64,000 bases of DNA from Chloroflexia bacterium (GTDB lineage Bacteria; Chloroflexota; Chloroflexia; Thermomicrobiales; CADCWN01). The stretch covers positions 20,001-84,000 of the forward strand of contig JAXLWN010000007.1 in the NCBI GenBank assembly GCA_046328475.1. Reading direction: 5' to 3'. Position 1 is the first letter of the stretch. Every line of letters starts with the position of its first letter. The position numbers and the translations under genes are program-made. Shown piece by piece: positions 30,267 to 49,155 of this stretch. Under the pieces are notes generated by a model. The model did not search any database and was not told where the DNA came from. It saw nothing but the letters and a program-made list of their open reading frames with translations.

Positions 30267-30605
30267 TGTCCCTTTCCAACACACGGCAAATGTCGGGCGA
30301 ATTGTACGGCACTGGTCGCCTGTTACGATGGGGGAGGGGGGGCGAAAAGTAGGTTTGTTTTTGCATTTTTGCTTTTTCTTTTTCTCTTTCCCTGGGGGCG
30401 AGGGCGGGGAGGGAGGCCCTCCATCCCCCAATGCTGGGGGACTTTACGGCGGTGGCGCTGGTGATGCGGGTCGGTTGGCGGTAGGTTGGCTCCCCCTACC
30501 CCCACATGTGGGGGATTTGGACGGATGGCTGAGGTGGGGGTGGTGGTCATGATGGGCCTCCTTGGGTGGGTGGCTTGGAGCACGGTGCGGGTGCCGTCTC
30601 ACGCT

Positions 30606-30628
30606 GGGCGGGTCGCGACCCGCCCTAC
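30606..30628. repeat. Single GC hairpin of the CCCTAC-flanked family
   Basis: gggcgggtcgcgacccgccctac, read directly. Confidence 0.7.
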
Positions 30629-30762
30629 CTGGATGAGGCGGCGTTGTGTCTGACGCCGCTACCTGTATCGTACCCGCCGAGGGGGGGGCGGACGTGCCAC
30701 ATTAGTGGAAAGATGACATTTGGAGTCATCGTGGCAAGGATGGGGGATTGAGTGGGGTGGGG

Positions 30763-31735
30763 TTAGTCGCGGGCGGCGTACCAGCGCAAGACGCGGAGGG
30801 CGCGCAGGTGTTCCAGCGGCTCGGGTGGCCTGCGCCTGCGTCGAGTTGGATTGGCATCTCGCCGGGTATTGGCATCGAGCGGCCAGCGGCCGTCGCTGTC
30901 GCGCTTGAGGCGACCAGGGCGATGGCTTCGGCTACGCGTTCGTCGGGGTAGACGTGGTTGGCACGGCGCAGGTATTCGAGGCCGCGCAGCAGGTCGTAGT
31001 GCCACCAGGTCGGGAAGGCGAGATTGGTCCAGGTGGCGCACCCCTTGCGGTCACGGCGATCACCTCGCCGCCGGTCGATTTCCGGCGGAAGAGGCGGCGT
31101 TCGAGCAGGTATTCCTTGCCCGCGCAGCCGGGTTTGGTCACCTCCGGCTGTTGCCGGATTGTTCGTGCGCGAGCAGGGCTTCGAGCACGATCGTAGTGCT
31201 GAAACCCAGAGGAGCGCGTCGAGCCGTTCTCGGCCTCGCAATTCCAGCCGCCATCGGGCAGTTGCTCGCCGAGCAGTCGCTCGATGATGCCCTGGACATC
31301 CTGGCCGAAGTAGGCACCGGCCGCCGCGACCTGTCCGTTGATGCAGGGTCTGCTTCGGCCTGAGAAGAAGGGGGTTGTCGCCGCCATCCGGACCCCATCC
31401 TCTGCCAGGTCACGCGGTCGCGCACGAGGCTCGCGCGCTGCGCTTCGCGCCGGTGTGGATCGAGGCCGAGGTCGCGCAGCAGCATCAGGGCGTGCATGGT
31501 GGAGGTCCAGCCGCGATTCCAGGTCGCGCCGCCCCACTGTCCGTCGGCCCTGGAGGGCGAGCAACTGCGCGCCCGCGCCCTCGGTGGCAACCCGCGCTCG
31601 CTCGGCCGCGATCGCGGGCGCATCGGTCAGGTCACGCAGCACCTGCCAGCGGATCGCCGGATCGCCAGCGAGCAGCCAGGTGATGACTGCCTGCTCGGGG
31701 TGGCGAGGCTGGCCGTTCGGGTGGGGATCGCCATC
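30763..31735 (-). pseudogene. Prenyltransferase/squalene-cyclase-repeat (terpenoid cyclase-like) gene with at least 5 frameshifts
   Basis: Colinear pieces lie in different frames: ITWLLAGDPAIRWQVLRDLTDAPAIAAERARVATEGAGAQLLALQ; RADGQWGGATWNRGWTSTMHALMLLRDLGLDP; FFSGRSRPCINGQVAAAGAYFGQDVQGIIERLLGEQLPDGGWNCEAENGSTRSS; FSTTIVLEALLAHE; GKEYLLERRLFRRKSTGGEVI; NLAFPTWWHYDLLRGLEYLRRA..DERVAEAIALV; DGRWPLD; LEHLRALRVLRWY*. Confidence 0.75.
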
Positions 31736-33042
31736 TGCCGCCCAGGGGGGCGGACCTCACCCCGCCGCCTGCGGGCGGCACCCTCTCCCGCGAGGAGAGG
31801 GGAGGTTCCGACTCCGCACGCATTTCCGCGCGACCCGATACTGGTGGTGATCGAACGCGCCAGTCGCCAACGGCGCGTTCAGCCGCGCGATCAGGGTAGC
31901 GCACGCGGCGGCCTCCTGACATGCTGATGTTCTCAGGGGGTGGGGTCGAGGACGAGCTGGGTTTGGTGATCTGGGCGAGGAGGCGACCTTCAAGGTTGGT
32001 GGTGAGGCGGGCTTTGCCAGACCTGGGTGCGTCGGCCGCGATGGGAGGGGAGGCATTCGCCGGTGACGATGCTGCCGCTCAGCGATGTTGCGTTGCGTGA
32101 CGGGTGCGCGAATGCGCGGCTTCTGCATGGCGATGGTCTCGACAAGCGTGGCAACTGCGTGTAGCATCATGGCCATCCTTGGTAGTGGGACCACATGATC
32201 GATGAAGAGTGTGTATGCCACCGGTGTCGTCAGCACTGGTGGGAGCTTTGGCATTGAAAGGGTACGCCATGTGGCAATGGGACAGTGATGACGAACAATC
32301 CTTCGAGGCCGAGGACCCATCGCCTCGAATATGAGGCAATGGCAAGACAAATCTGTTGATTTCGATGAACTCGCTGCTGGCTTCGATGGCGCGCCTGCTA
32401 TCGGACGTTCGCTACTCCCGCTGGGCCGTATCATCGAGGAGCCCTATCTTCAGGATCTTAGCTGGCTTGTTACTGATGGCTGGCCTGTTGAGGTGTTGGC
32501 ACTGTGGCCTCTGGTCGCATGTAGATCATCCTGATCAGCAGCATTGTGAGGAGTGCCCAAGCTCCTCTGCCGTCGTTGCTGCCGCTTGCCAGCCACCTTT
32601 TTCTTGTGGCTGAAGCGTCTGCCCCACTGCTGGGTGCGACGGGCCAGCGCGGCACTCTGCCAAGCGCAGATTGTTCGTATTGGTTGGTATTGGCCTATAC
32701 GACGGCTGTGCGCTCTGATTCGAGTTGGACTCGCCGGTGAGATTGTGCCGACCGATATATTCGTTGCGCCGAGCGAGCTGGAAGAGATCGTCCCTAAGCA
32801 TTTTGCCGAAACCAGATCATGTGCCTGCGGATTGTGGGCTAAAGCGCTGCGATGGTGGCTGCCGTTATCGCCGGGGGATCGTCGGCCACACTGGTGGGCA
32901 CGATATGCGACTTCAGCCGTAGGGGGCGAGGCTAACGAGGCGGATGCCGAGCAGGCGGCTGAAGGGGGGCAGGCGGTCTTGCATTTCGGCGAGCGGGTTC
33001 ATGGTTGCCTCCACAGAGTTGAGCGCTCTGCCCCTCACGATT

Positions 33043-33963
33043 TCAGGGGGCGATGGCGAACTCTTCGCCGGTGAGGGCGTGGCGGCGGGCGGCCCAGGCT
33101 TCCGGTCGTTCTTCGGTGAGGAGGAAGGTGTAGCCGTCGCCGGGGACAGGGCCAACGAGCAGGGCTTCGGGGTGGAGGTGTTCGAGAGGCAGATTGGCGC
33201 GGGTGAAGGCGTCGGCGACGGTACGCAGGTCTGCAGCGAGAAGGTGGAGCAGGGCGATTTCGCCGCGATCGTGCGGGGCGTCCTGCCAGGCGCGGGTTGT
33301 AGCGACGGCGGTATTCGTCGGGGTGAGCCAGGTGGCGAGGTGGGGGCCGATCTGCACGACGGCTGAGCCTTCCTCCTCGGGGATCGGTTCGTGGGGAGCG
33401 AGGAGGGTGGCCCAGCGGATGGCGCGGGCGCGGGGATCGGGCGCGACGAGGATGACGCCGTTGATGGCGTAGGCGGTGTTGGGCGGGATCGGCACCGGGC
33501 GGGGCGAGGGGCGCTGCGCGCCATGGTAGGTCAGGGCGAAGCAGTGGGCACCGGGGAGGAGGTCGCGGGGGATCGGCTGGAAGCTCCAGGCTGGCCCGGC
33601 GTCGGACGTCGCGCACGCCCCGGCTGATGGCGGGCGGGAGGGTGTAGCCGCGCTCGCGCCATTCCTCGGCGGTGGCGGCGACATCGGGGGATTCCAGGCC
33701 GATGCCCCAGGGTCGCATGGCGGGCTGATAGGTCTGGATGCCGGGGACGCCACTGCCACCGGCGGCGAAGAGGGCGTCGTCTTCGACCCAGGCGAGTTCG
33801 AGGTATTCGGGGCCGAGCATGATGAAGCCGTTGCGCAGGCCGGGGTCGTGGCGCACGGTCGTCGCTTCGGGGAGGAAGCCACTGACGGTAGAGGTCGAGT
33901 TGGGCCCTCGATGGTGGCGGCGCGGGTCGAGGTGATGAAATGCTCCATGCGAATGGGGTGCAT
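33043..33963 (-). pseudogene. Glyoxalase-like (VOC superfamily) domain protein with at least 2 frameshifts
   Basis: MHPIRMEHFITSTR.. is in one frame. TVRHDPGLRNGFIMLGPEYLELAWVEDDALFAAGG..RPWGIGLESPDVAATAEEWRERGY is in a second frame. PGAHCFALTYHGAQ..INGVILVAPDPRARAIRWATLL..EIALLHLLAADLRTVADAF is back in the first frame. Confidence 0.55.
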
Positions 33964-33982
33964 TGGGCCTCCGGGGTGTGAA

Positions 33983-34017
33983 GGGAGAGGGGAGAGGGGA
34001 GAGGGGAGAAGGGAGAA
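33983..34017. repeat. Tandem heptamer array (GGGAGAG)3(GGGAGAA)2
   Basis: Read directly, upstream of the VOC-like remnant. Confidence 0.85.
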
Positions 34018-34154
34018 GGATGAGGCGTGGGCTGATGTTGAAAGTGAGTGGAGTTCCGATTGCTCCGCCCGGAGATAAATCTCCGTTATACACGCGCCGG
34101 ATGAATCCGGCTTGGGCGGGGCATGGCGGGCAGGGTTGGCGTGGGGGGTAATCC

Positions 34155-35087
34155 TCATGCGTTCGACCTCGGGTGGGTGCCGTTGGCGGGGAGGAGGGCT
34201 GCGCAGACGGCGAAGTTGAGGGGGGTGGGGACGTTGTGTTCGCGGCCGAGGCGGACGATCGCGCCGTTAAAGGCGTCGAGTTCGATGCGGCGTCCGGCGG
34301 CGAGGTCGCGGCTGAGGGAGCTGCGGACGGTGGGGGAGGCACCGGCGAGGACGGCGAGCTGGCGCGCGATGGCGTCGTCGGGGAGTTGCACGCCGAGGGC
34401 GCGGGCGACGGCGACGGCTTCTTCCATCATGCCGCGACAGAGGGCGAAGGTCTCGGGACAGGAGCAGAGGGCGCGATAGGGGAGGCGGGTGAGGCCGCTG
34501 AGGCTGCCACCGGCGACGATGGAGAGGAATTTCTCCCAGAGGACAACGCGGATATTGGGGCTGAGTTCGGCGGCAAGCCCGGCGGCGTGGAAGGTCTTCA
34601 GGAGTTGCTCGGTGCGCGGGCTGGTGCCGCCCGCGAGTTCGCCAAAGCGGAGGTGGCCGGAGAGGCCGCCCTCGACGATCAGGCCGGGCGCGGCGACGTG
34701 CGCGGTGCGGTAGACCACGCCGCCGAGAACGGCGTTGAGACCGACGACGCGGGCGATGCGGTCTTCGTTGTCCACGCCGTTCTGGAGGGAGAGGACGAGT
34801 GTGGCCGGTCCCATCAGCGGTGGCAGGCGGGCGGCGAGGGCGTCGGTGTCGTAGGACTTGACGCCGAAGATGACGAGATCGACCGGGCCGATGTCGCGCG
34901 GGTCGTCGCTGGCGGCGACGGCGACGGTGAATTCGCCCGCCTCGTCCGAGCGGAGGGTGAGGCCGCGCTCGCGGATGGCCTGGAGGTGCGCGCCGCGCGC
35001 GATGCAGGCGACCTCGTGCCCGGCGCGGGCGAGCATCGCGCCGTAGTAGCCTCCGAGGCCGCCGGTTCCGGCGATGGCGACGCGCAT
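34155..35087 (-). CDS. panE: 2-dehydropantoate 2-reductase (ketopantoate reductase, ApbA/PanE family)
   Basis: MRVAIAGTGGLGGYYGAMLARAGHEV (Rossmann), LQNGV, and the C-terminal ApbA_C region SSLSRDLAAGRRIELDAFNGAIVRLG. The start was set at 35087. Confidence 0.85.
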   Translation of the reverse strand: MRVAIAGTGGLGGYYGAMLARAGHEVACIARGAHLQAIRERGLTLRSDEAGEFTVAVAASDDPRDIGPVDLVIFGVKSYDTDALAARLPPLMGPATLVLSLQNGVDNEDRIARVVGLNAVLGGVVYRTAHVAAPGLIVEGGLSGHLRFGELAGGTSPRTEQLLKTFHAAGLAAELSPNIRVVLWEKFLSIVAGGSLSGLTRLPYRALCSCPETFALCRGMMEEAVAVARALGVQLPDDAIARQLAVLAGASPTVRSSLSRDLAAGRRIELDAFNGAIVRLGREHNVPTPLNFAVCAALLPANGTHPRSNA

Positions 35088-36037: not shown

Positions 36038-36062
36038 GGGCGACGCGCCGAGTCGCCCCTAC
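36038..36062. repeat. Single GC hairpin of the CCCTAC-flanked family
   Basis: gggcgac-gcgccga-gtcgcccctac, lying between convergent genes. Confidence 0.7.
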
Positions 36063-40937: not shown

Positions 40938-41162
40938 CTAGCTATCGAGTGCGTCCCGGCCCCGCGCGGTGAGCGTCACGGCGCATTCGGCGAGGCGGGG
41001 GCCAGTTTCTACCCGGATCAATTCGTCGCCGAGGGCGTCCTCCCAGGCCGAGAGGCGCGGGCAGGAGGTGCGCCAGGCGTCCATCGCCTCGGCGTAGGTG
41101 CGCGGGCGGAGGGTCAGCCAGGTGAGGAATTCGCGGGTCGCGGGCGCGATTGCGGTTGGCAT
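40938..41162 (-). CDS. Small hypothetical protein (74 aa), divergent from LysR
   Basis: MPTAIAPATREFLTWLTLRPRTYAEAMDAWRTSCPRLSAWEDALGDELIRV.. GC3 is high. No domain name could be assigned. Confidence 0.45.
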   Translation of the reverse strand: MPTAIAPATREFLTWLTLRPRTYAEAMDAWRTSCPRLSAWEDALGDELIRVETGPRLAECAVTLTARGRDALDS

Positions 41163-41325: not shown

Positions 41326-42219
41326 ATGGAACTGCGGCAACTGCGGTACTTCGCGGCGGTGGCGCGGCGGCGTCATTTCACGTTGGCGGCAGAGGCGATC
41401 GGGGTGGCGCAACCGGCGCTCTCGCAGCAGGTGCGGCTGCTGGAGCGCGAGCTCGGTGTGCAGCTGTTCGACCGGAGCGGGCGGCGGGTGCGGCTGACGG
41501 CGGCGGGCGAGGCGCTGCTGGTGCGGGCGGAGAGCATTCTGGCGGAGGTCGCCAACGCGCAATCGGAGATGGCGGAATATGCCGGGACGGTGCGCGGGCG
41601 GGTGGTGGTCGGCACGCTGCCGTCGCTCGCGGAACACCAGTTGCCGCCGTTGGTCGCGGCGTTCCACCGCCGCCACCCCGGCCTGGAGCTGATCCTGCGC
41701 GAGGAGCGGACGGCGCGGCTGCTGGAACTGCTGGCGGCGGGGGAAGTGGACCTCGCGCTGTTGCACCAGTCGCCCGCCGCGACCGAGGCGCTGCCCGCGC
41801 TGACCATCGAGCCGCTCTTCACGGAGGAGTTGGTGGCGGCGGTCGGCGAGGGGCACCGGTTGGCGGATCGCGCGGCGCTGCCGCTGGCGGCGCTGCGCGA
41901 CGAGGACTTTGTGCTGACCAAGTCGGGCTCGGCGATCCGCGACACGATCCTGGCGGCGTGCGCGGTGGCCGGGTTCGCGCCGCACATCGCGTTCGAGAGC
42001 GGCGCGGCGGCGACGGCCCGCGCGCTGGCCGCTGCCGGGCTCGGGATTGCCATCCTGCCTCGCTCGGAGGCGCTGGCCGACGGCCCGCCGCTGGTCGCGA
42101 TCGAGCTGGACCCGCGCCTGACGCGCACGGTGGCGCTCGCCTGGCCCGCCGCGCGCCGCCACCCGCCCGCGACGGCGGCGTTCCTGGCGCTGGCGCGGGA
42201 GGCGTTGCGACGGGGGTGA
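41326..42219 (+). CDS. LysR family transcriptional regulator
   Basis: MELRQLRYFAAVARRRHFTLAAEAIGVAQPALSQQVRLLERELGVQLFDR (HTH), followed by a LysR substrate-binding domain. Confidence 0.93.
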   Translation: MELRQLRYFAAVARRRHFTLAAEAIGVAQPALSQQVRLLERELGVQLFDRSGRRVRLTAAGEALLVRAESILAEVANAQSEMAEYAGTVRGRVVVGTLPSLAEHQLPPLVAAFHRRHPGLELILREERTARLLELLAAGEVDLALLHQSPAATEALPALTIEPLFTEELVAAVGEGHRLADRAALPLAALRDEDFVLTKSGSAIRDTILAACAVAGFAPHIAFESGAAATARALAAAGLGIAILPRSEALADGPPLVAIELDPRLTRTVALAWPAARRHPPATAAFLALAREALRRG

Positions 42220-42263
42220 GGGCGCTACGTGCCTCTGCGTTCGCGTTTCGGGGTCGCGGCGGC

Positions 42264-43409
42264 TTACTCCGGGGCTGGTACCGCCACCAGCGCGTCGCCG
42301 TCGAGGTCGTAGTGGCGGGCGCGGTAGGTCAGCCGCCCGGTCTCATCCCAGGCGGCGAAGAGGTATTCCATCTCGGGCGAATAGATCAGCGTGCCGCGCT
42401 TCTGCCCTTCCTCCAGCCACACCGAGTCGAGCGAGCCCCAGAGTCTGAACGTCGCCCCCTGGGCATGGAGGTACCAGTTGCCAGGCGATTGAATACCCGA
42501 TCGGGTGCTACCTGCTTTGTATCGCAGCTCATAGAAACCGACGTAGCGAGCATACGTGCCTGCGGCCTGCATCGCGGCGTGTTGCTGATCGACGGTCCGC
42601 CCCGTAACAAACAGCAGGCCCAGGAGGAAGACTGAAGCGCCATAGAGGGAAAGAAAGATGCCCGGTGGAGCACCGAGGTAGTGGAAGATGCCGCCGATCG
42701 CGGCGGGCACGAGCATCATGGCGACGATCTGCCAGGGCCACCCGCCGTTCGGATCCAGGCGCGCCCGCATCTGCGGCGTGAGGGGGTAGCGACCGGGAGC
42801 GACCGGGTGTCGCCCCGCTTGCGCGCGCGCGGTCGCGGGCGCAGCGGCGCGCGAGCCTTCCGGCACCCTCCCATCGCCCGCGCCGGGTGCGACAAGTTCC
42901 TTGTCACTGCGCAGGTCGTAGTCGGCGTACTGGTGGATGACACGCCCCTGCTGATCCCAGATGGCGAAGATCGCCTGCGCCGCGACGGAGTAGACCGCGG
43001 TCACGCGCTCCTGCGCCAGGATCGGCTCCGCCTGCTCCGTGCGAAGATCCAGCGGCAGGCGGTCGTCCCCCAGGATCATGGCAAACTTCTGACCGCGCGC
43101 CGGGGGGGCGATGTGGGGCGGCCCCACGTAGTGCCGGTAGGTGCCCTCCGCCAGTGCCCGCCGCACCCGCGAGTGATTCCCCCAGAAGTGGACCGCGCCG
43201 AGGATGATGGGCGTTGCGAGGAAGCAGAGCACCAACAGGGCGATGTACGGGAAGGCGTCGCCGGTCGTGGGGAGGAGGCACGCCGTCAAGATGCCGACGA
43301 ACGCCGCGAGTGCGAGTCCTCCCCGAACAAGCAGTCGGTTGTTCCTGGCGCGGTGCTCCAGGAGTGCCGCACGCATCTGCTGCGTCAGTGGCAGTGATTC
43401 GGGTGTCAT
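42264..43409 (-). CDS. Membrane protein built from two homologous halves (each 2 TM helices plus a ~100-aa soluble domain)
   Basis: The two halves share PLT.QMRA.L, two hydrophobic helices, GTY..YVG, YS..FA.WD..GR and YDL..D.LVA in the same order. No family was recognised. Confidence 0.6.
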   Translation of the reverse strand: MTPESLPLTQQMRAALLEHRARNNRLLVRGGLALAAFVGILTACLLPTTGDAFPYIALLVLCFLATPIILGAVHFWGNHSRVRRALAEGTYRHYVGPPHIAPPARGQKFAMILGDDRLPLDLRTEQAEPILAQERVTAVYSVAAQAIFAIWDQQGRVIHQYADYDLRSDKELVAPGAGDGRVPEGSRAAAPATARAQAGRHPVAPGRYPLTPQMRARLDPNGGWPWQIVAMMLVPAAIGGIFHYLGAPPGIFLSLYGASVFLLGLLFVTGRTVDQQHAAMQAAGTYARYVGFYELRYKAGSTRSGIQSPGNWYLHAQGATFRLWGSLDSVWLEEGQKRGTLIYSPEMEYLFAAWDETGRLTYRARHYDLDGDALVAVPAPE

Positions 43410-43571
43410 GGCATCCCCTCATCGCTGGCGGCTACACGGATAGCGACCCCGCGTACCAGCATGGGCCACGCCCGCGCCTGTGCCTATCCGGGGAAGTACG
43501 GATTTTTCGTGCGCCTACCGCCCCACGCGGGCCTGCGCGGCGGCGACGTTGCGGCGGGGAGGAAGGGGAGA

Positions 43572-44279
43572 TCAGTGGTTGGGGCGGCCCGTGGCCTGGA
43601 ATGGCAATGTGCCAACACGCCCATCGCATGTGCCGATCGACCAATCGATCAGGAGCGTTTCACCGCTCGTCGGCAGGGAGAGGCGCATTTGACTGGGGGT
43701 CGGTGTCAACGGTTCGCAGCGACCCGCGCCGGGGCCGCGCGTGGAGTAGGTCAGGTAGGTCAGGGCATACCCTGGCCCGTTGTCGCGATGTGGGATGGGC
43801 GGGGCGAGGCCGGGCAGGAGCACGACGGTCGCGGCGGGCTGGCCGTCCCAGGTTTTCCAGCCGGTCAGGTCGGCGCTTGCGGGTGTCGAGAGTATCACCG
43901 CGCCATCGTCACCCAGGAGTTCAAGCCCCGGCACGCCGGTGAGGCTGCATTGCGCCGATCCCCGATTACGAAAGTAGAGTATGAGGAAGACTGTGCCACT
44001 GGCAGCCATCTCGCCGCCCTCGGAAATAGCCAAATCCGACGCACGGCATGGCGGGGCTACGCCTGCGGCGATTGGTGTCGGTGGAGCAGTTGTCGCGGTT
44101 AATTCTGGCGTGGATACCGCAAGGGGGGTGACAGGATCACTCCCGGCGAGCGGTCGCGTTGCCGTGCTGAGGGGAGTATCGCCCAGCGGCGAGGTGCGCA
44201 CCACCTCCCGAGCGCAACCCGCCATGCAGAGCAGCCCAAGAATAAGCAAGGCCGTTGCTATGACACGCCCGCCCATCAC
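43572..44279 (-). CDS. DUF4232-domain secreted lipoprotein (paralog a)
   Basis: Signal plus lipobox LLCMAGC. The DUF4232 core reads PPCRASDLAISEGGEMAASGTVFLILYFRNRGSAQCSLTGVPGLELLGDDG. Confidence 0.75.
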   Translation of the reverse strand: MMGGRVIATALLILGLLCMAGCAREVVRTSPLGDTPLSTATRPLAGSDPVTPLAVSTPELTATTAPPTPIAAGVAPPCRASDLAISEGGEMAASGTVFLILYFRNRGSAQCSLTGVPGLELLGDDGAVILSTPASADLTGWKTWDGQPAATVVLLPGLAPPIPHRDNGPGYALTYLTYSTRGPGAGRCEPLTPTPSQMRLSLPTSGETLLIDWSIGTCDGRVGTLPFQATGRPNH

Positions 44280-44392
44280 TCAGCCTCATCCGGTAGCCAT
44301 CACCTATCATCGATGCAACGCGCGGAATGGGCACGAGGTACGGTCGGGGTTTGCTACAATTTCCGGGTACCAGAAGCGCGAAGGAGCAGGGC

Positions 44393-44665
44393 ATGGCACA
44401 GACGGTGCGCGCGATCTATGAACAAGGGCAACTCAGGCTGCTGGAGGATGTGGCGCTGTCCGAAGGACAGGAGGTGAACATCTCGATCCTTTCCGACCGC
44501 GACCTGGTCCGGGCGGCGCTCGGCGATCTCGTCGTTAAATTCCCGGAAGAGGAGAGCGACGATGCGATTGATGAGGAGGCGTTGCTGCGCGAGATCGAAG
44601 CCGAACTGACCGGAGACCTGCGACTCTCGGAGGCGATCATTGAGGAACGTCGCGAGGATTCGTGA
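44393..44665 (+). CDS. AF2212/DUF104-like antitoxin (VapB-type partner of the PIN toxin)
   Basis: The N-terminus MAQTVRAIYEQGQLRLLEDVALSEGQEVNISIL is typical of the family. SD AAGGAG is at 44381-44386. The stop overlaps the toxin GTG (GTGA, 44662-44665). Confidence 0.7.
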   Translation: MAQTVRAIYEQGQLRLLEDVALSEGQEVNISILSDRDLVRAALGDLVVKFPEEESDDAIDEEALLREIEAELTGDLRLSEAIIEERREDS

Positions 44666-45123
44666 GCCACTACTTCCTCGACAGCAGCGCGCTGCTCAAG
44701 CGATATGTCGTTGAGCCTGGGAGTCGCTGGATCCGCGCGTTGACCTCGCCGGCCGTAGGGCACGAATTGTTCGTCGCCGCGATTGTGCGTGTTGAAGCAG
44801 TCTCGGCGCTGGCCCGTCGTAGGCGTGAAGGTCGCCTATCTGCGCTGGGAGCTCGCAACCTGCGCCTGCTTATCGAACGCCAGATAGGTCGTTGCATCGT
44901 TGCCGAGGCGAACGATGCGGTGTTGCAGCGCGCTTGCGATTTGCTTGAGCGCCACGCGCTCCGCGCATACGACGCGGTGCAGCTTGCTTCCGCGCTTGAG
45001 AGCAACGACCGCTTGCAGGCAAGGGCGCTGGCTCCGATTACCTTCGTCTCTGCCGACCAGCGACTCCTCGCCGCCGCATCGGCTGAGGGGCTGGCGGTCG
45101 AAGATCCCAACCTCCACACCTGA
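44662..45123 (+). CDS. vapC: PIN-domain ribonuclease toxin (VapC family)
   Basis: MSHYFLDSSALLKRY (first acidic residue), ..AYDAVQLASAL.., ..FVSADQRLLAAA.. This is the typical PIN acidic quartet spacing. It is translationally coupled to the upstream antitoxin. Confidence 0.8.
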   Translation: MSHYFLDSSALLKRYVVEPGSRWIRALTSPAVGHELFVAAIVRVEAVSALARRRREGRLSALGARNLRLLIERQIGRCIVAEANDAVLQRACDLLERHALRAYDAVQLASALESNDRLQARALAPITFVSADQRLLAAASAEGLAVEDPNLHT

Positions 45124-45178
45124 CATTCTCTTTGCAGCACACCACGCTCTCCCCATAGACAGGGACCCGATTTGCGGG

Positions 45179-45258
45179 CCTGGCCCGCCGCGCGCCGCCA
45201 CCCGCCCGCAACGGCGGCGTTCCTGGCGTTGGCGCAAGACGCGTTGCGGCGGGGATGA
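45179..45258 (+). pseudogene. Orphan 80-nt copy of the LysR gene 3' end (encodes AWPAARRHPPATAAFLALAQDALRRG*)
   Basis: By hand alignment, 73/80 nt are identical to 42140..42219, the true 3' end of the LysR CDS. Homology starts abruptly at cctggcccgcc. Confidence 0.85.
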
Positions 45259-45269
45259 GCGACGGGAGA

Positions 45270-45974
45270 TCAGGGACTGGTGCGACCGGTGGCCTGGAAT
45301 GGAGAGGTGCCAATGCGTCCGTCGCATGTGCCGATCGACCAATCGAGCAGGAGCGTTTCACCGCTCGTCGGCAGGGTGAGGCGCATTCGAACAGGGGCCG
45401 GTGTCAGCGGTTCGCATCGGCCTGCGCCAGGGCCGCGCGTAGAGTAGCCCAGGTAGGTCAGCGCATACCCTGGCCCATTGTAGCGATGCGGGATGGGTGG
45501 GGGGAGGTCAGGAAGCAGCACGACGGGCGTTGCGGGCTGGCCATCCCAGGTTTTCCAGCCGGTCAGATCGCCGCTTGCGGGTGTCGAGAGTATCACCACG
45601 CCATCGTCACCCAGGAGATCAAGGCCCGGCACGCCGGTGAGGCTGCATTGCGCCGATCCCTGATTCCGAAAGTAGAGAATGAGGGAGATTGTGCCGCTGG
45701 CAGCCATCTCGCCGCCCTCGGAGATAGCTAGGTCCAACGCACGGCATGGTGGGGCTGCTCCTGCGCCGATGGGTGTCGCTGGAGCAGTCGTCGCAGTGAA
45801 TCTTGGTGTGGATACCACAAGAGGGGTGGCAGGATCCTTCCCGGTAAGCGGACGCGTTGCCGGGTTGGTGGGAGAGTCGCCTAGCAATGAGGTGCGCACC
45901 ACCTCCCGGGCACAGCTCACCGTGCCAAGCAAACAGACGACAAGCATGGCTATTACTGCGACGTGTCTGCACAT
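45270..45974 (-). CDS. DUF4232-domain secreted lipoprotein (paralog b)
   Basis: Colinear with 43572..44279 along its full length (roughly three quarters identical by eye). The lipobox is LLGTVSC. Confidence 0.75.
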   Translation of the reverse strand: MCRHVAVIAMLVVCLLGTVSCAREVVRTSLLGDSPTNPATRPLTGKDPATPLVVSTPRFTATTAPATPIGAGAAPPCRALDLAISEGGEMAASGTISLILYFRNQGSAQCSLTGVPGLDLLGDDGVVILSTPASGDLTGWKTWDGQPATPVVLLPDLPPPIPHRYNGPGYALTYLGYSTRGPGAGRCEPLTPAPVRMRLTLPTSGETLLLDWSIGTCDGRIGTSPFQATGRTSP

Positions 45975-46065
45975 TGTTCAACCTCGCCGGGAGCCATTGC
46001 ACATTATTAGTGCAACGCGCGGGACGCGCGCGGGGTATGGTTGTCGGTTTATTCATCGACAGATC

Positions 46066-46194
46066 GTAAGGGCGACGCGGTGCGTCGCCCGCTTGGAGAG
46101 CGGTAATTGTATGGCATAGCGGTGTGCGCCGGTGGGTGGTGATCCGCGTCGCAATTGCCGCCCCGGCGCGGGCGACGCACCGCGTCGCCCCTAC
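46066..46194. repeat. 129-bp MITE-like element with 27-nt terminal inverted repeats that are themselves hairpins (CCCTAC family)
   Basis: gtaagggcgacgcggtgcgtcgcccgc (46066-46092) matches the reverse complement of gcgggcgacgcaccgcgtcgcccctac (46168-46194) at 26/27 positions. The right end contains the stop codon of the Pat-like gene (cta, 46191-46193). Confidence 0.85.
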
Positions 46195-48941
46195 AACACC
46201 AGCCACGCCTCAACCACCTCATCCCGATAGTTGTGCTTGAGGGTGAAGCCGTGCTGTTTGGCGACGCGCTGCATGCCGGTGTTCTCGGGGAGGATTTCGG
46301 CGGTGATGCGGCGGAGGCCTTCGTCGCGGCCGATCTGGATGAGGCGGCTGAGGAGTTCGGAGCCGAGGCCGAGGCGCTGGTAGCGGTCGTTGACGAGCAG
46401 GGCGAACTCGGCTTCGGGTGCGTCGGTGCCGGGGGTGCGACTGAGGCGGCCGACGGCCATGATCTCGGGCTGGCCGGTCTCGGGGTTGCGGCGCTCGACG
46501 ACCAGGGCCATCTCGCGGGCGTAGTCGATGAAGCACATCCGCACCAGGCGCTCGTGCGAGGTGCGCTGGTGCAGCGTCATCATGTGGAAGTAGCGGTAGT
46601 AGACGCTCCGCTCGGAGAGGTTCTGGTGGAACTGGACCAGCAGGGGCTCGTCCTCGGGGCGGATCGGGCGGATGGTGACCTCCTCGCCGCCACGCGTGGT
46701 CCAGTTGGAGGCGTACTGCGCCGGGTAGGGGTGGATCGCGGAGCGGGGAAGGTCGGACTCGGGGATGGCGGGGTCGTGGAGGACAACGCGCGCATCGAGC
46801 GCGATCAGGCGGTCGGGCGAGGCGAGCAGCGGGTTGATGTCGAGTTCCTTGATCTGCGGCTGCTCGACGATCAGTTGGCTGAAGCGGACCAGCAGGCCCT
46901 CCAGCGCCGCGAGATCCACGGGCGGGCGACCGCGCACGCCCTGGAGGGCGGTCAGGATGCGGGTGCCCTCCATCATGCGCCGGGCCAGGGTGGTGTTGAG
47001 TGGGGGGAGGGCCAGGGCGCGGTCGCGGAAGACCTCCACCAGCTGCCCGCCGGTGCCGAAGAGGAGGACCGGGCCGAACTGCGAGTCGATGCTGCTGCCG
47101 ACGATCAGCTCGTAGCCATCGAGGCGGACCATCGGCTGCACGGTGACACCGGCGAAGTCGGCGGCGGGGACGCCGCGCTGGATGCGCTGGAAGGCCGCGC
47201 GCACGGCGTCGGCATCGGCGAGGTTGAGTTGCACGCCGCCCACATCGGTCTTGTGGGTGATCGTCTTGGAGTAGAGTTTGAGCACCGCCGGGTAGCCGAT
47301 CGCATCCGCCGCCGCGACCGCCCCCTCCTCGTCGGTCGCCACGCGCGTCTCCACGGTCGGGATGCCGTAGGCGGCCAGCAGGGCTTTCGATTCGGGCTCG
47401 GTCAGCAGCGTGCGCCCCTCGGCGCGGATCGCCCGCAACTGCGCCCGCACGTCCGATTCCGCATTCCGCACTCCGAATTCCGCATTCGACAGCGTTGGCG
47501 TCTCGTAGAGGCTGCGGAGGTTGTCGGCGTAGCGCCACATGTAGGCGAAGACGCGCGCGGCGGTGTCGGGGTAGGGGAAGGTGGGGATGCCCGCGCGCGT
47601 CAGGATCGCCTCGCCCGGTGCCACCGCGTCGCCCCCCATGAAGGAGGCGATCAGCGGCTTGTGGATCGAGTGCGCGTAGGGCGCGAGCAGCTCGGCGACG
47701 CGCGTGGGGTCGGTCATCGCCTGCGGCGTCAGCATGATCAGCAGGCCATCGGTCGTCGGGTCCTTCGCGGCGGCGGCGAGCGTCTTGGCGTAGCGGTCGG
47801 GGTCGGCATCGCCGATGATGTCGATCGGGTTGCCGTGGCTCCAGTGTTCGGGCAGCACGCCATCGAGTGCCGCGAGCGTCTCGGGCGCGAGCTCGGCCAG
47901 CGCGCCGCCGTTTTGCAGGAGCGCGTCGGTCGCCAGCACCCCAGGGCCGCCCGCGTTGGTGACCAGCGCCAGGCGCGGGCCGCGCGGGCGGGGCTGCTTG
48001 GCGAGCGCCTCGGCCAGATAGAAGACCTCGGCGATGGTGTTGACGCGCAGCACGCCGACGCGACGGAAGGCGATGTCCAGCACCTCGTCGCTGCCGGTGA
48101 GCGAGCCGGTGTGGGAGGCGGCGGCGTGCGCGGCCTGCGCGGTGCGCCCGCCCTTGATCACGATGATCGGCTTGGTCAGCGCCACCTCGCGCGCGGCGGA
48201 GAGGAAGGCGGTCGCGTCGCCGATCGACTCCATGTAGACGATGATGCTCTGGGTCTTGCGGTCGTTGCCGAAATAGTCGATCAGGTCGCCCCAGCCGACA
48301 TCGAGCATCGAGCCGACCGAGATGAAGGCGCTGAAGCCGACCTCCTCGCGCAGGCTCCAGTCGAGCACGGAGGTGCAGAGCGCGCCGCTCTGGCTGAGGA
48401 AGGCGACGTTGCCGGGGCGGGCGATGGTGGCGGCGAAGGTGGCGTTGAAGCCGCTCGGCGGGGTCATCGCGCCGAGGCAGTTCGGCCCCAGCAGGCGCAT
48501 CCGCCCCTTGCGCGCCTCGGCGAGCACCTGGCGCTCCAGTTCGGCCCCCGCCTCGCCCTGCTCCTTGAAGCCGGCCGAGATGATGATCGCCCCCTTCACC
48601 CCGGCCGCGACGCACTCGGCGACGATCGCGGGCACGGTCGGCGCGGGCGTGGCGATGATCGCGAGATCGACCCGCTCGGGCACCTCGCCGATCGCGGCGT
48701 AGGCCTTGATGCCGAGCACGTAGCGTCGCTTCGGATTGACCGGGAAGACCGCACCGCCGAACGGGCTGGCGACGAGGTTCGCCAGGATCGTGCGCCCGAC
48801 GCTCCTCGGCTCCTCGCTCGCGCCGATCACCGCGACCGCGCGCGGCTTGAAGAGCGCGTCGAGCGGCTGCCGCTCGGCGCGGTAGACATCGTGCGCCGGG
48901 TCGCTGGGTGCGGGCATCTGCGGGCCGGGCTGCTGCGCCAT
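46191..48941 (-). CDS. Pat-type bifunctional protein: ADP-forming acetyl-CoA synthetase-like (CoA-binding, ligase, ATP-grasp) fused to a C-terminal GNAT acetyltransferase
   Basis: CoA-binding region [20 protein letters not shown]; SHTGSLTG; ATP-grasp region [36 protein letters not shown]; C-terminal GNAT region [21 protein letters not shown]. The start was set at MAQQPGPQ (48941). Confidence 0.9.
47454..47488. repeat. Heptamer array (CGATTCC GCATTCC GCACTCC GAATTCC GCATTCG) embedded in the Pat-like CDS
   Basis: Read directly. It is translated on the minus strand as ..[14 protein letters not shown].. in the linker between the ligase and ATP-grasp parts. The same unit forms the intergenic array at 62872. 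Confidence 0.85.
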
Positions 48942-49155
48942 GCTGATCCCTCCATCGGCGTAGCCGGTATCATCGCGCGCGAACGAACGAGCGCCCTCGC
49001 ACAGCTTACAGCACGCCGCGTGCCGCTGGGCGCGCAAAACCGCGCCGCCGGGGTCGCGTTTAAGGCATGGTTGCCGGGCCAACGATTTCCGCTACACTTC
49101 CCCCGGTCCGCTACGGACACTTGCATGTTGGACGCCCACAGCGAGGAAGGATTGC

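Follow-up and report, generated by a model that had tools for sequence, protein, structure and literature searches.

Introduction

Site-specific integration classically leaves behind direct repeats of the target gene's 3′ end, by which the gene is regenerated. Orphaned gene ends are also known from a second setting, the Rhs, CDI and T6SS effector-immunity loci, where C-terminal displacement and orphan 3′ modules have been described (Jackson 2009; Poole 2011; Kirchberger 2017; PMC5361080), with additive insertions pushing the old 3′ end of an upstream gene, together with its partner, downstream and leaving orphan strings behind. A published proposal explains displaced 3′ ends at these loci by homology-facilitated illegitimate recombination (PMC5361080), a process for which that article cites de Vries & Wackernagel 2002, Prudhomme et al. 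2002 and Meier & Wackernagel 2003.

Here, we analyse a 64-kb stretch of DNA (the window) from an uncultured high-GC lineage, probably Chloroflexota, in which the 3′ end of a LysR-family regulator gene recurs as an orphan tail downstream, so that the two copies bracket 3 kb of DNA. We argue that the orphan tail is probably the scar left by additive illegitimate recombination, anchored in homology, at an islet of variable content between LysR and a Pat-like gene. As in homology-facilitated illegitimate recombination, one conserved flank is available as a possible homologous anchor, the other junction appears to be non-homologous (with GC-rich microhomology in the lineage of the relative L082), and foreign DNA would have been added beside a gene that remains intact; unlike the experimentally observed process, the event is deduced here from comparative anatomy in uncultured relatives. 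As at the Rhs, CDI and T6SS loci, there are orphan 3′ modules, namely T2′ with DUF4232a and T3 with DUF4232b (Table 1), although the displaced gene is a LysR regulator rather than a polymorphic toxin, and the cargo consists of DUF4232 lipoproteins and toxin-antitoxin pairs rather than effector-immunity pairs. The locus also resembles replacement-type flexible genomic islets in its conserved core flanks, its varied cargo and a GC3 that is lower in the islet genes (0.66–0.82) than in the flanking genes (0.87–0.97); it differs from them in that two alleles appear to be concatenated rather than swapped, which would account for the orphan tail T3.

Results

The repeated LysR 3′ end and its neighbour

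A sequence-only reading of the window had pointed to an 80-nt direct repeat of the LysR 3′ end with the same frame and stop in both copies, and this repeat is real: 73 of the 80 bases are identical over those coordinates, and 75 of 82 over the full extent of T1 and T3, which share the reading frame and end in TGA. The first 31 nt of the repeat occur exactly twice in the 64-kb window, compared with an expectation of zero from 100 shuffles, and the window holds no further copy of the T1/T3 tail. The homology starts abruptly at G/CCTGGCCCGCC, as had also been noticed, and for the 54 nt to its left (J) no match was found, either in the window or in the loci fetched from relatives. A 15-nt palindrome at 45174–45188, read directly from the sequence, straddles the junction between J and T3. 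The gene content previously assigned to the segment (LysR, a membrane protein, a DUF4232 pair and VapBC) agrees with Pfam. T3 is a non-functional relic.

Table 1 Features of the LysR–Pat islet, in window coordinates.
Feature	Position	Strand	Remarks
LysR-family regulator gene	41326–42219	+	Pfam HTH_1 and LysR_substrate; conserved left flank of the variable islet
T1, functional LysR 3′ end	42139–42220	+	Copy repeated at T3 (45178–45259)
M, 381-aa membrane protein gene	42264–43409	−	Between LysR and DUF4232a; internal two-fold repeat
T2′, remnant of the LysR tail	43547–43563	+	Last 17 nt of the tail; left end of the DUF4232a/b duplication
DUF4232a unit	43547–44352 (CDS 43572–44279)	−	Lipoprotein-like gene and upstream region Ua; Pfam DUF4232
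AF2212-like antitoxin	44393–44665	+	Pfam, E 1.5e-11
PIN toxin	44662–45123	+	Pfam, E 4.8e-8
J, junction sequence	45124–45177	none	54 nt from the VapC stop to T3; junction 45177/45178
T3, orphan LysR 3′ end	45178–45259	+	Non-coding relic; frame and stop kept, without start codon
DUF4232b unit	45242–46050 (CDS 45270–45974)	−	CDS and upstream region Ub; Pfam DUF4232
Inverted-repeat (REP/MITE-like) element	46066–46194	none	Between Ub and the Pat stop
Pat-like acyl-CoA synthetase/GNAT acetyltransferase gene	46191–49082	−	Conserved right flank of the islet

The orphan tail does not stand alone. T3 is contiguous with DUF4232b in one collinear 873-nt block (45178–46050) made up of the LysR tail, DUF4232b and its promoter, and the repeated unit is therefore about 870 nt long, not 80 nt. 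The DUF4232a and DUF4232b units are 82% identical over 814 columns, and the former retains just the last 17 nt of the LysR tail. This remnant, T2′ (CGTTGCGGCGGGGAGGA), lies just before the DUF4232a stop, has its own stop mutated from TGA to GGA, is conserved in the relative L092, and is clearly homologous to the LysR tail because the 814-column, 82%-identical duplication has its left end there. Of the third, degraded tail that had been placed at about 43500–43570, the T2′ portion stands, while the part at 43500–43546 aligns with the tail no better than shuffled sequence does (score 13, shuffle mean 12.3). DUF4232a and DUF4232b (dN/dS 0.36, dS 0.35; upstream regions about 70% identical) are two diverged lipoprotein paralogues, both under purifying selection, and together with the L092 copy they form a trichotomy at 86–88% identity.

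At the nucleotide level, T1 is the best-conserved 81-nt bin of LysR (comparison with L082, L177 and L088). Among LysR tails, T3 comes nearest to the T1 of the window itself, with 7 differences compared with 10–23 to the LysR tails of relatives. This proximity is also compatible with an intragenomic origin of T3.

Haplotypes of the islet in relatives

The left flank of the locus is conserved: the order aconitase-orf74-LysR is kept in L082, L086 and L177, parts of it can be seen in L081 and L098, aconitase adjoins LysR in L089, L091 and L095–L097, and amino-acid identities across all relatives are 74–94% for aconitase and 75–92% for LysR. With Pat on the right (84–86% nucleotide identity in L088 and L177), conserved sequence that could serve as a homologous anchor is present.

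Between these flanks, and up to Pat where the contig reaches that far, the cargo differs among L081, L082, L086, L088, L175, L177 and the window. In L094, a convergent DUF4232 gene lies 22 nt from the LysR stop, and from 45178 onward T3-DUF4232b runs collinear with this locus (76% over 819 nt); in L175, a DUF4232 3′ remnant directly follows LysR and is itself followed by VapB. The ancestral order suggested earlier, LysR followed by a convergent DUF4232 gene, is thus found in L094 and as a remnant in L175, and the displaced T3 is still collinear with its original neighbour as seen in these simpler haplotypes. From VapBC, L175, one of the more distant relatives, retains only the antitoxin gene and its promoter, with a promoter-like box TGCTACAATTTCC common to it and the window (44352–44364). 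VapBC homologues (67–69% nucleotide identity) directly follow LysR in the more distant relatives L086 and L088, the latter reading LysR-VapBC-Pat with 13 nt from VapC to Pat. L177 carries no cargo, LysR being directly convergent with Pat, and in L081 LysR is followed by an FHA-domain gene. The left flank is conserved in all of L177, L088, L086 and L081. Neither whole parental haplotype, LysR-DUF4232-inverted repeat-Pat or one with VapBC-J, was seen among the fetched loci. By this comparison, the LysR–Pat space is a small variable islet whose cargo varies by lineage: nothing, VapBC, DUF433/DUF5615, a DUF4232 lipoprotein gene, M, or unrelated genes.

A tail duplication in another lineage

A parallel event was observed in L082-85, four contigs from four samples, which read LysR, a different toxin-antitoxin pair (DUF433/DUF5615), a 92-nt Pat 3′ fragment and an orphan LysR tail. 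This tail, 106 nt long, is fused to the Pat fragment through an imperfect 18-nt overlap with the core CGCGCCTCA; it differs from T3 in its left boundary and in its C-terminus (RRAMAG*), and an unrelated gene comes next. The left boundaries of the tail duplications do not coincide: T3 in the window starts 82 nt before the stop, the L082 tail 106 nt and T2′ about 17 nt. The L082-85 tail is the product of an independent event, a microhomology fusion to the other flanking gene, Pat.

These observations bear on the proposal, made in the sequence-only reading, of site-specific integration into the gene's 3′ end. A mobile element whose attP contains the LysR 3′ end would have integrated into LysR, with T1 and T3 as attL and attR and with the integrase lost or acting in trans. 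T1 and T3 do resemble the classic footprint in being direct 3′-end repeats that regenerate the gene, tails were duplicated at the same gene in two lineages, and no other part of LysR is as well conserved in nucleotide sequence as the tail; as in integrase-mediated islands in the 3′ ends of tRNA or protein genes, repeats of the target's end bracket accessory DNA and the target is intact. However, the bracketed 3 kb are not one unit, its genes being present or absent independently in relatives: VapBC occurs after LysR without the rest (L086, L088), DUF4232 alone (L094), M-DUF4232 alone (L092, L093), the antitoxin gene only (L175), or no cargo at all (L177). In addition, the repeat boundaries vary between events, and the L082 junction carries a fragment of the opposite flanking gene, that is, donor chromosomal context.

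No recombinase or transposase domain was found with Pfam in the six bracket genes or in ten flanking gene-like ORFs (at least 100 aa, gene-like base composition, at 28.0–37.7 kb and 49.2–53.6 kb), in agreement with the earlier statement that no integrase is present and extending it to about 10 kb on either side; similarity to known plasmids or phages was likewise not found. Single-strand DNA folds of T1 and T3 on both strands gave z between −0.26 and −1.55, none of them significant, so that the tail offers no significant fold (z −0.3 to −1.6) in favour of an integration site. Site-specific integration is already disfavoured by these findings, and we regard it as very improbable. An integron-like cassette array was also considered and rejected, with no folded attC-type site in T1 or T3 (same z range) and no integrase in the scanned genes. 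We give equally little credence to a broader version, in which the last ~80–100 nt of LysR would be a dedicated recombination hotspot where integrase-less cassettes (toxin-antitoxin pairs and DUF4232 units) were inserted repeatedly by a trans-acting recombinase encoded elsewhere, leaving T2′, T3 and the L082 tail as three independent footprints.

Age of the repeat and possible duplication within one genome

The two copies of the tail differ at 7 of 82 positions, compared with 15.9 expected if the relic had been neutral since the DUF4232a/b split (P = 0.006) and 7.6 expected for two constrained LysR alleles. The observed divergence fits the second expectation, that of two constrained LysR alleles, and not a neutral relic dating back to the DUF4232a/b split, though the comparison spans 82 nt only and the same pattern would result if T1 had converted T3.

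This result weighs on an in-situ tandem duplication, in which an unequal or illegitimate exchange between sister chromosomes would have copied a stretch that began 82 nt ahead of the LysR stop and ended shortly after VapC, after which the second VapBC was lost, M was inserted and the copies diverged within one genome. Such an origin would explain why the two copies share one locus and one orientation and why T3 is closest to its own T1, and in its topology the L082 junction, in which the right flank is fused to the left flank, matches that of a tandem duplication. But T1 and T3 are far less diverged than a neutral relic of that age should be, the L082 'copies' contain entirely different genes, and the L092 DUF4232 gene, which has M as its partner just as DUF4232a does, resembles a no more closely than b. 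At least two more precise events would also be needed, loss of the second VapBC and its replacement by the inverted-repeat region, and neither a second VapBC promoter nor J has left a trace right of 46050. We consider a tandem duplication unlikely. In its simplest form, as a head-to-tail segmental duplication with the same content and equal age, it does not describe the locus, in which VapBC and J separate the copies, M is found in the left unit only and the inverted-repeat element in the right unit only, and the tail and DUF4232 parts have diverged to different degrees.

A variant would reconcile the low T1–T3 divergence with the high DUF4232a/b divergence: a recent in-situ duplication of tail and DUF4232, followed by replacement of the left copy (M-DUF4232a) with a diverged allele through homologous recombination. 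It is compatible with M-DUF4232 as an independently circulating haplotype, which is linked in this way in L092 and L093 on contigs of their own, and nothing in the data speaks directly against it. Nevertheless, it invokes two events where one suffices and still requires both the illegitimate junction at 45177/45178 and the VapBC between the copies, and we consider it quite improbable.

Probable additive recombination at the islet

Under additive, homology-anchored illegitimate recombination, which we consider the probable origin of the orphan tail, two alternative islet haplotypes would stand end to end in the window: LysR-M-DUF4232a-VapBC-J, followed by (LysR tail)-DUF4232b-inverted repeat-Pat. 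Their joining would have taken a single homologous crossover in a conserved flank and one illegitimate join at 45177/45178, at a point 82 nt ahead of the stop codon in a LysR allele. The same product would also arise from a Campbell-type insertion of a circularised fragment. The cut LysR allele would have left only T3, still joined to its downstream neighbour DUF4232b, while the intact LysR kept T1. M would have come to lie between LysR and DUF4232a through an earlier event of this kind, which left T2′ behind. The mechanism of recombination, its direction and the origin of the haplotypes in different cells are what we infer from this arrangement. As had been suggested before, the best reading is that the event added DNA while LysR kept an intact 3′ end.

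The locus would then be a clean, datable natural case of additive recombination, with two stacked alleles of a variable islet and a gene-end fragment left as a scar, suggesting that toxin-antitoxin modules and paralogous surface-protein genes can accumulate between conserved genes without mobile-element machinery. The scar is real but ordinary, produced by a known kind of event, and it neither calls for a new mechanism nor opens a long-standing question. For annotators, it carries the caution that a 3′-end direct repeat is not always an att site.

Other islet genes and the right flank

In functional terms, the islet is predicted to contain a VapBC addiction module, two DUF4232 lipoprotein paralogues and M. 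The segment 44393–45123 has the layout of a VapBC-type type II toxin-antitoxin operon, which begins with a small antitoxin gene and continues with a PIN toxin gene, the two ORFs overlapping by 4 nt (GTGA, 44662–44665). M has no Pfam or NCBIfam family match, and its two halves are 27% identical (E 1e-9). The inverted-repeat element between Ub and Pat has 27-nt arms that are 96% complementary, with an RNA fold of z = −8.4. A third copy of its palindrome lies at 36038–36058.

A repeated LysR 3' end marks a contiguous DUF4232 unit

The 3' end of the LysR gene (T1) recurs about 3 kb downstream as an orphan tail copy (T3), with 75 of 82 positions matching, the same frame and a TGA stop in both. The initial 31 nt are identical and occur at only two sites in the 64-kb window, against none expected by chance, confirming the 80-nt repeat described in the sequence-only reading. 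Homology begins abruptly at the left edge of T3. DUF4232a with its flanks (43547–44352) aligns to 45242–46050 at 82% identity over 814 columns, and this alignment takes in the final 17 nt of the LysR tail, so that T3 is the left end of a contiguous unit, 45178–46050, comprising the LysR tail, a short spacer, DUF4232b and its upstream region. A third, degraded tail copy had also been claimed; it holds for a 17-nt remnant beside DUF4232a (T2'), its stop mutated to GGA, but not further left to 43500, where similarity was no better than that of shuffles. No match to J, the 54 nt between the VapC stop and T3, was found in the window or any fetched locus, nor were homologues of 42221–43546 and 46051–46184.

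Features in and around the islet, the variable space between the convergent conserved genes LysR and Pat
Feature	Position	Strand	Remark
Third palindrome copy	36038–36058		between convergent genes
74-aa ORF	40938–41162	minus	no Pfam or NCBIfam match
LysR (CDS)	41326–42219		Pfam
T1	42139–42220		LysR 3' end
M, 381-aa membrane protein	42264–43409	minus	no Pfam or NCBIfam match
T2'	43547–43563		tail remnant
DUF4232a	43572–44279	minus	Pfam
AF2212-like antitoxin and PIN toxin (VapBC)	44393–45123		Pfam
J	45124–45177		
T3	45178–45259		orphan LysR tail
DUF4232b	45270–45974	minus	Pfam
129-nt element	46066–46194		arms 46066–46092 and 46168–46194
Pat-like acyl-CoA synthetase/GNAT	46191–49082	minus	named after Pfam families of the L088 orthologue

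A perfect 15-nt palindrome, GCGGGCC-T-GGCCCGC (45174–45188), straddles the junction of J and T3, with only its right half present in T1; it may be due to chance or be a trace of junction formation. In L082, L177 and L088, nucleotide conservation along LysR is highest in the final 81-nt bin (42136–42216; 0.85–0.95), and that of the preceding bin (42055–42135) is among the lowest (0.62–0.74); the left edge of T3 falls at this same change in conservation.

Relatives carry simpler states of the islet

Scanning a species-representative genome collection for LysR revealed no close genome (best match 46%), an exact look-up of the window LysR found nothing, and a search of metagenomes for the tail pattern gave 0 matches in a collection that evidently lacks the samples of JGI contigs known to carry the pattern. 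A metagenome protein scan returned only 75% relatives with unrelated downstream regions. A tblastx comparison of the downstream regions of relatives with the window yielded only compositional noise and was discarded. Metagenomic contigs were compared that had been reached via LysR homologues at 70–92% identity, plus three reached via DUF4232 homologues. The left flank (aconitase, orf74, LysR) is kept wherever a contig extends to it, and what lies downstream of LysR varies by lineage.

Arrangement downstream of LysR in relatives' loci
Locus	LysR identity	Arrangement
L081	92%	FHA-domain gene
L082–L085	89%	DUF433/DUF5615 pair, 92-nt Pat 3'-end fragment, 106-nt orphan LysR tail, unrelated 388-aa gene
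L086	78%	VapBC
L088	81%	VapB, VapC, then Pat after 13 nt
L092, L093	LysR absent from contig	M–T2'–DUF4232
L094	89% (tail, nucleotide)	22 nt, convergent DUF4232, then DUF433 antitoxin gene
L175	83%	~70-nt DUF4232 3' remnant, VapB promoter and VapB, then glycosyltransferase
L177	82%	Pat directly after LysR, convergent

The suggestion that LysR was ancestrally convergent with a DUF4232 gene is borne out by this comparison, as the simpler arrangement is present in L094 and a remnant of it in L175; from 45178 on, T3–DUF4232b is collinear with the L094 LysR–DUF4232 pair (76% over 819 nt). L175 and L177 appear to show this islet in a deleted and an empty form. The 3-kb bracket is not one unit: its VapBC is a long-standing neighbour of LysR in more distant lineages, and M–DUF4232a is a separately circulating block carrying its own tail remnant. 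Across 42200–46400, GC3 is 0.66–0.82 versus 0.87–0.97 in the flanks (aconitase, LysR, Pat), which gives the islet the look of accessory DNA; local GC falls to 0.60–0.66 around 44000–46200.

In L177 (2002–2158), a 150-nt spacer separates the convergent LysR and Pat; a candidate DUF4232 remnant within it was rejected, being a 14-nt match only. L175 (964–1370) has VapB without VapC beside the DUF4232 remnant. The VapBC homologue of L086 (11005–11735, GCA_963851995.1) is readable only with two to three frameshifts, reflecting either a pseudogene or indel errors.

T3 as a probable recombination scar

Of the 13 loci with LysR that were examined, only the window and the L082–L085 lineage have orphan tails, the latter represented by four contigs from four samples. 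There, the overlap of Pat fragment and tail is an imperfect 18-nt microhomology (TCGCCACGCGCCTCATGC). The tail starts about 26–32 nt further upstream than T3, encodes a different C-terminus, and differs from the resident tail mostly by synonymous changes (7 synonymous versus 3 non-synonymous codons). This event is independent of, and parallel to, that in the window. Fusion of a right-flank piece to a left-flank piece is expected from illegitimate joining of two islet haplotypes and differs from the product expected of a recombinase acting at a fixed site.

Site-specific integration into the LysR 3' end, the mechanism put forward in the sequence-only reading, is not supported: no recombinase was found in the bracket or in gene-like ORFs scanned at 28.0–37.7 kb and 49.2–53.6 kb, and the boundary differs in each of the three tail duplications. 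Single-strand folding of the tail was insignificant, so that an attC-like structure was rejected, and the absence of similarity to plasmids or phages led us to reject such an origin. An assembly chimera was likewise rejected, since no shared k-mer lies at the junction and an analogous structure (L082) recurs in four samples.

T3 is probably a scar of recombination within a variable islet, and non-functional; the earlier interpretation was right about the ancestral arrangement, and its integration mechanism is not supported. We propose that two LysR–Pat islet haplotypes, either of which could have been the resident, were concatenated through a single homologous crossover within a conserved flank plus a single illegitimate join between 45177 and 45178. 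This would be homology-facilitated illegitimate recombination or, equivalently, single-crossover insertion of a circularised fragment. M would have been inserted, and T2' left behind, by an earlier event of this kind that is common to L092. Among described systems, the scar comes closest to the 'displacement' undergone by 3' ends and partner genes in Rhs, CDI and T6SS loci, where homology-facilitated illegitimate recombination has already been proposed (PMC5361080).

Age of the junction

DUF4232a and DUF4232b differ with dS = 0.35 and dN/dS = 0.36, the latter indicating that both have been kept by selection; identity between their non-coding upstream regions is about 70%. With the L092 copy added, the three DUF4232 genes make an unresolved trichotomy (86–88% identity). 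Over the mere 82 nt of the tail, the seven T1–T3 differences compare with ~16 expected for a neutral relic since the a/b split (P = 0.006) and 7.6 predicted for two LysR alleles diverging under constraint. The observed number fits constrained alleles rather than a neutral relic and suggests that each DUF4232 unit diverged while attached to a working LysR, in separate genomes, and that the joining came afterwards. The main alternative is that gene conversion accounts for the low T1–T3 divergence.

Other elements

The 74-aa ORF between aconitase and LysR has 71–86% amino acid identity in L081, L082, L086, L098 and L177. Within ~3.7 kb at 30431–34155, there are only two short gene-like ORFs (31496–31927 and 32944–33366), both without a Pfam match. 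M contains an internal tandem duplication (halves 27% identical, E 1e-9); the N-terminus of its L092 counterpart is only 45% identical, and the neighbouring spacer that leads to DUF4232 has about 89% nucleotide identity. The 129-nt element (RNA fold z = -8.4) lies between the DUF4232b promoter and the Pat stop, and its 27-nt inverted arms are each themselves a GC palindrome (GGGCGACGCnnnGCGTCGCCC); with the related third copy at about 36 kb, this family looks REP- or MITE-like.
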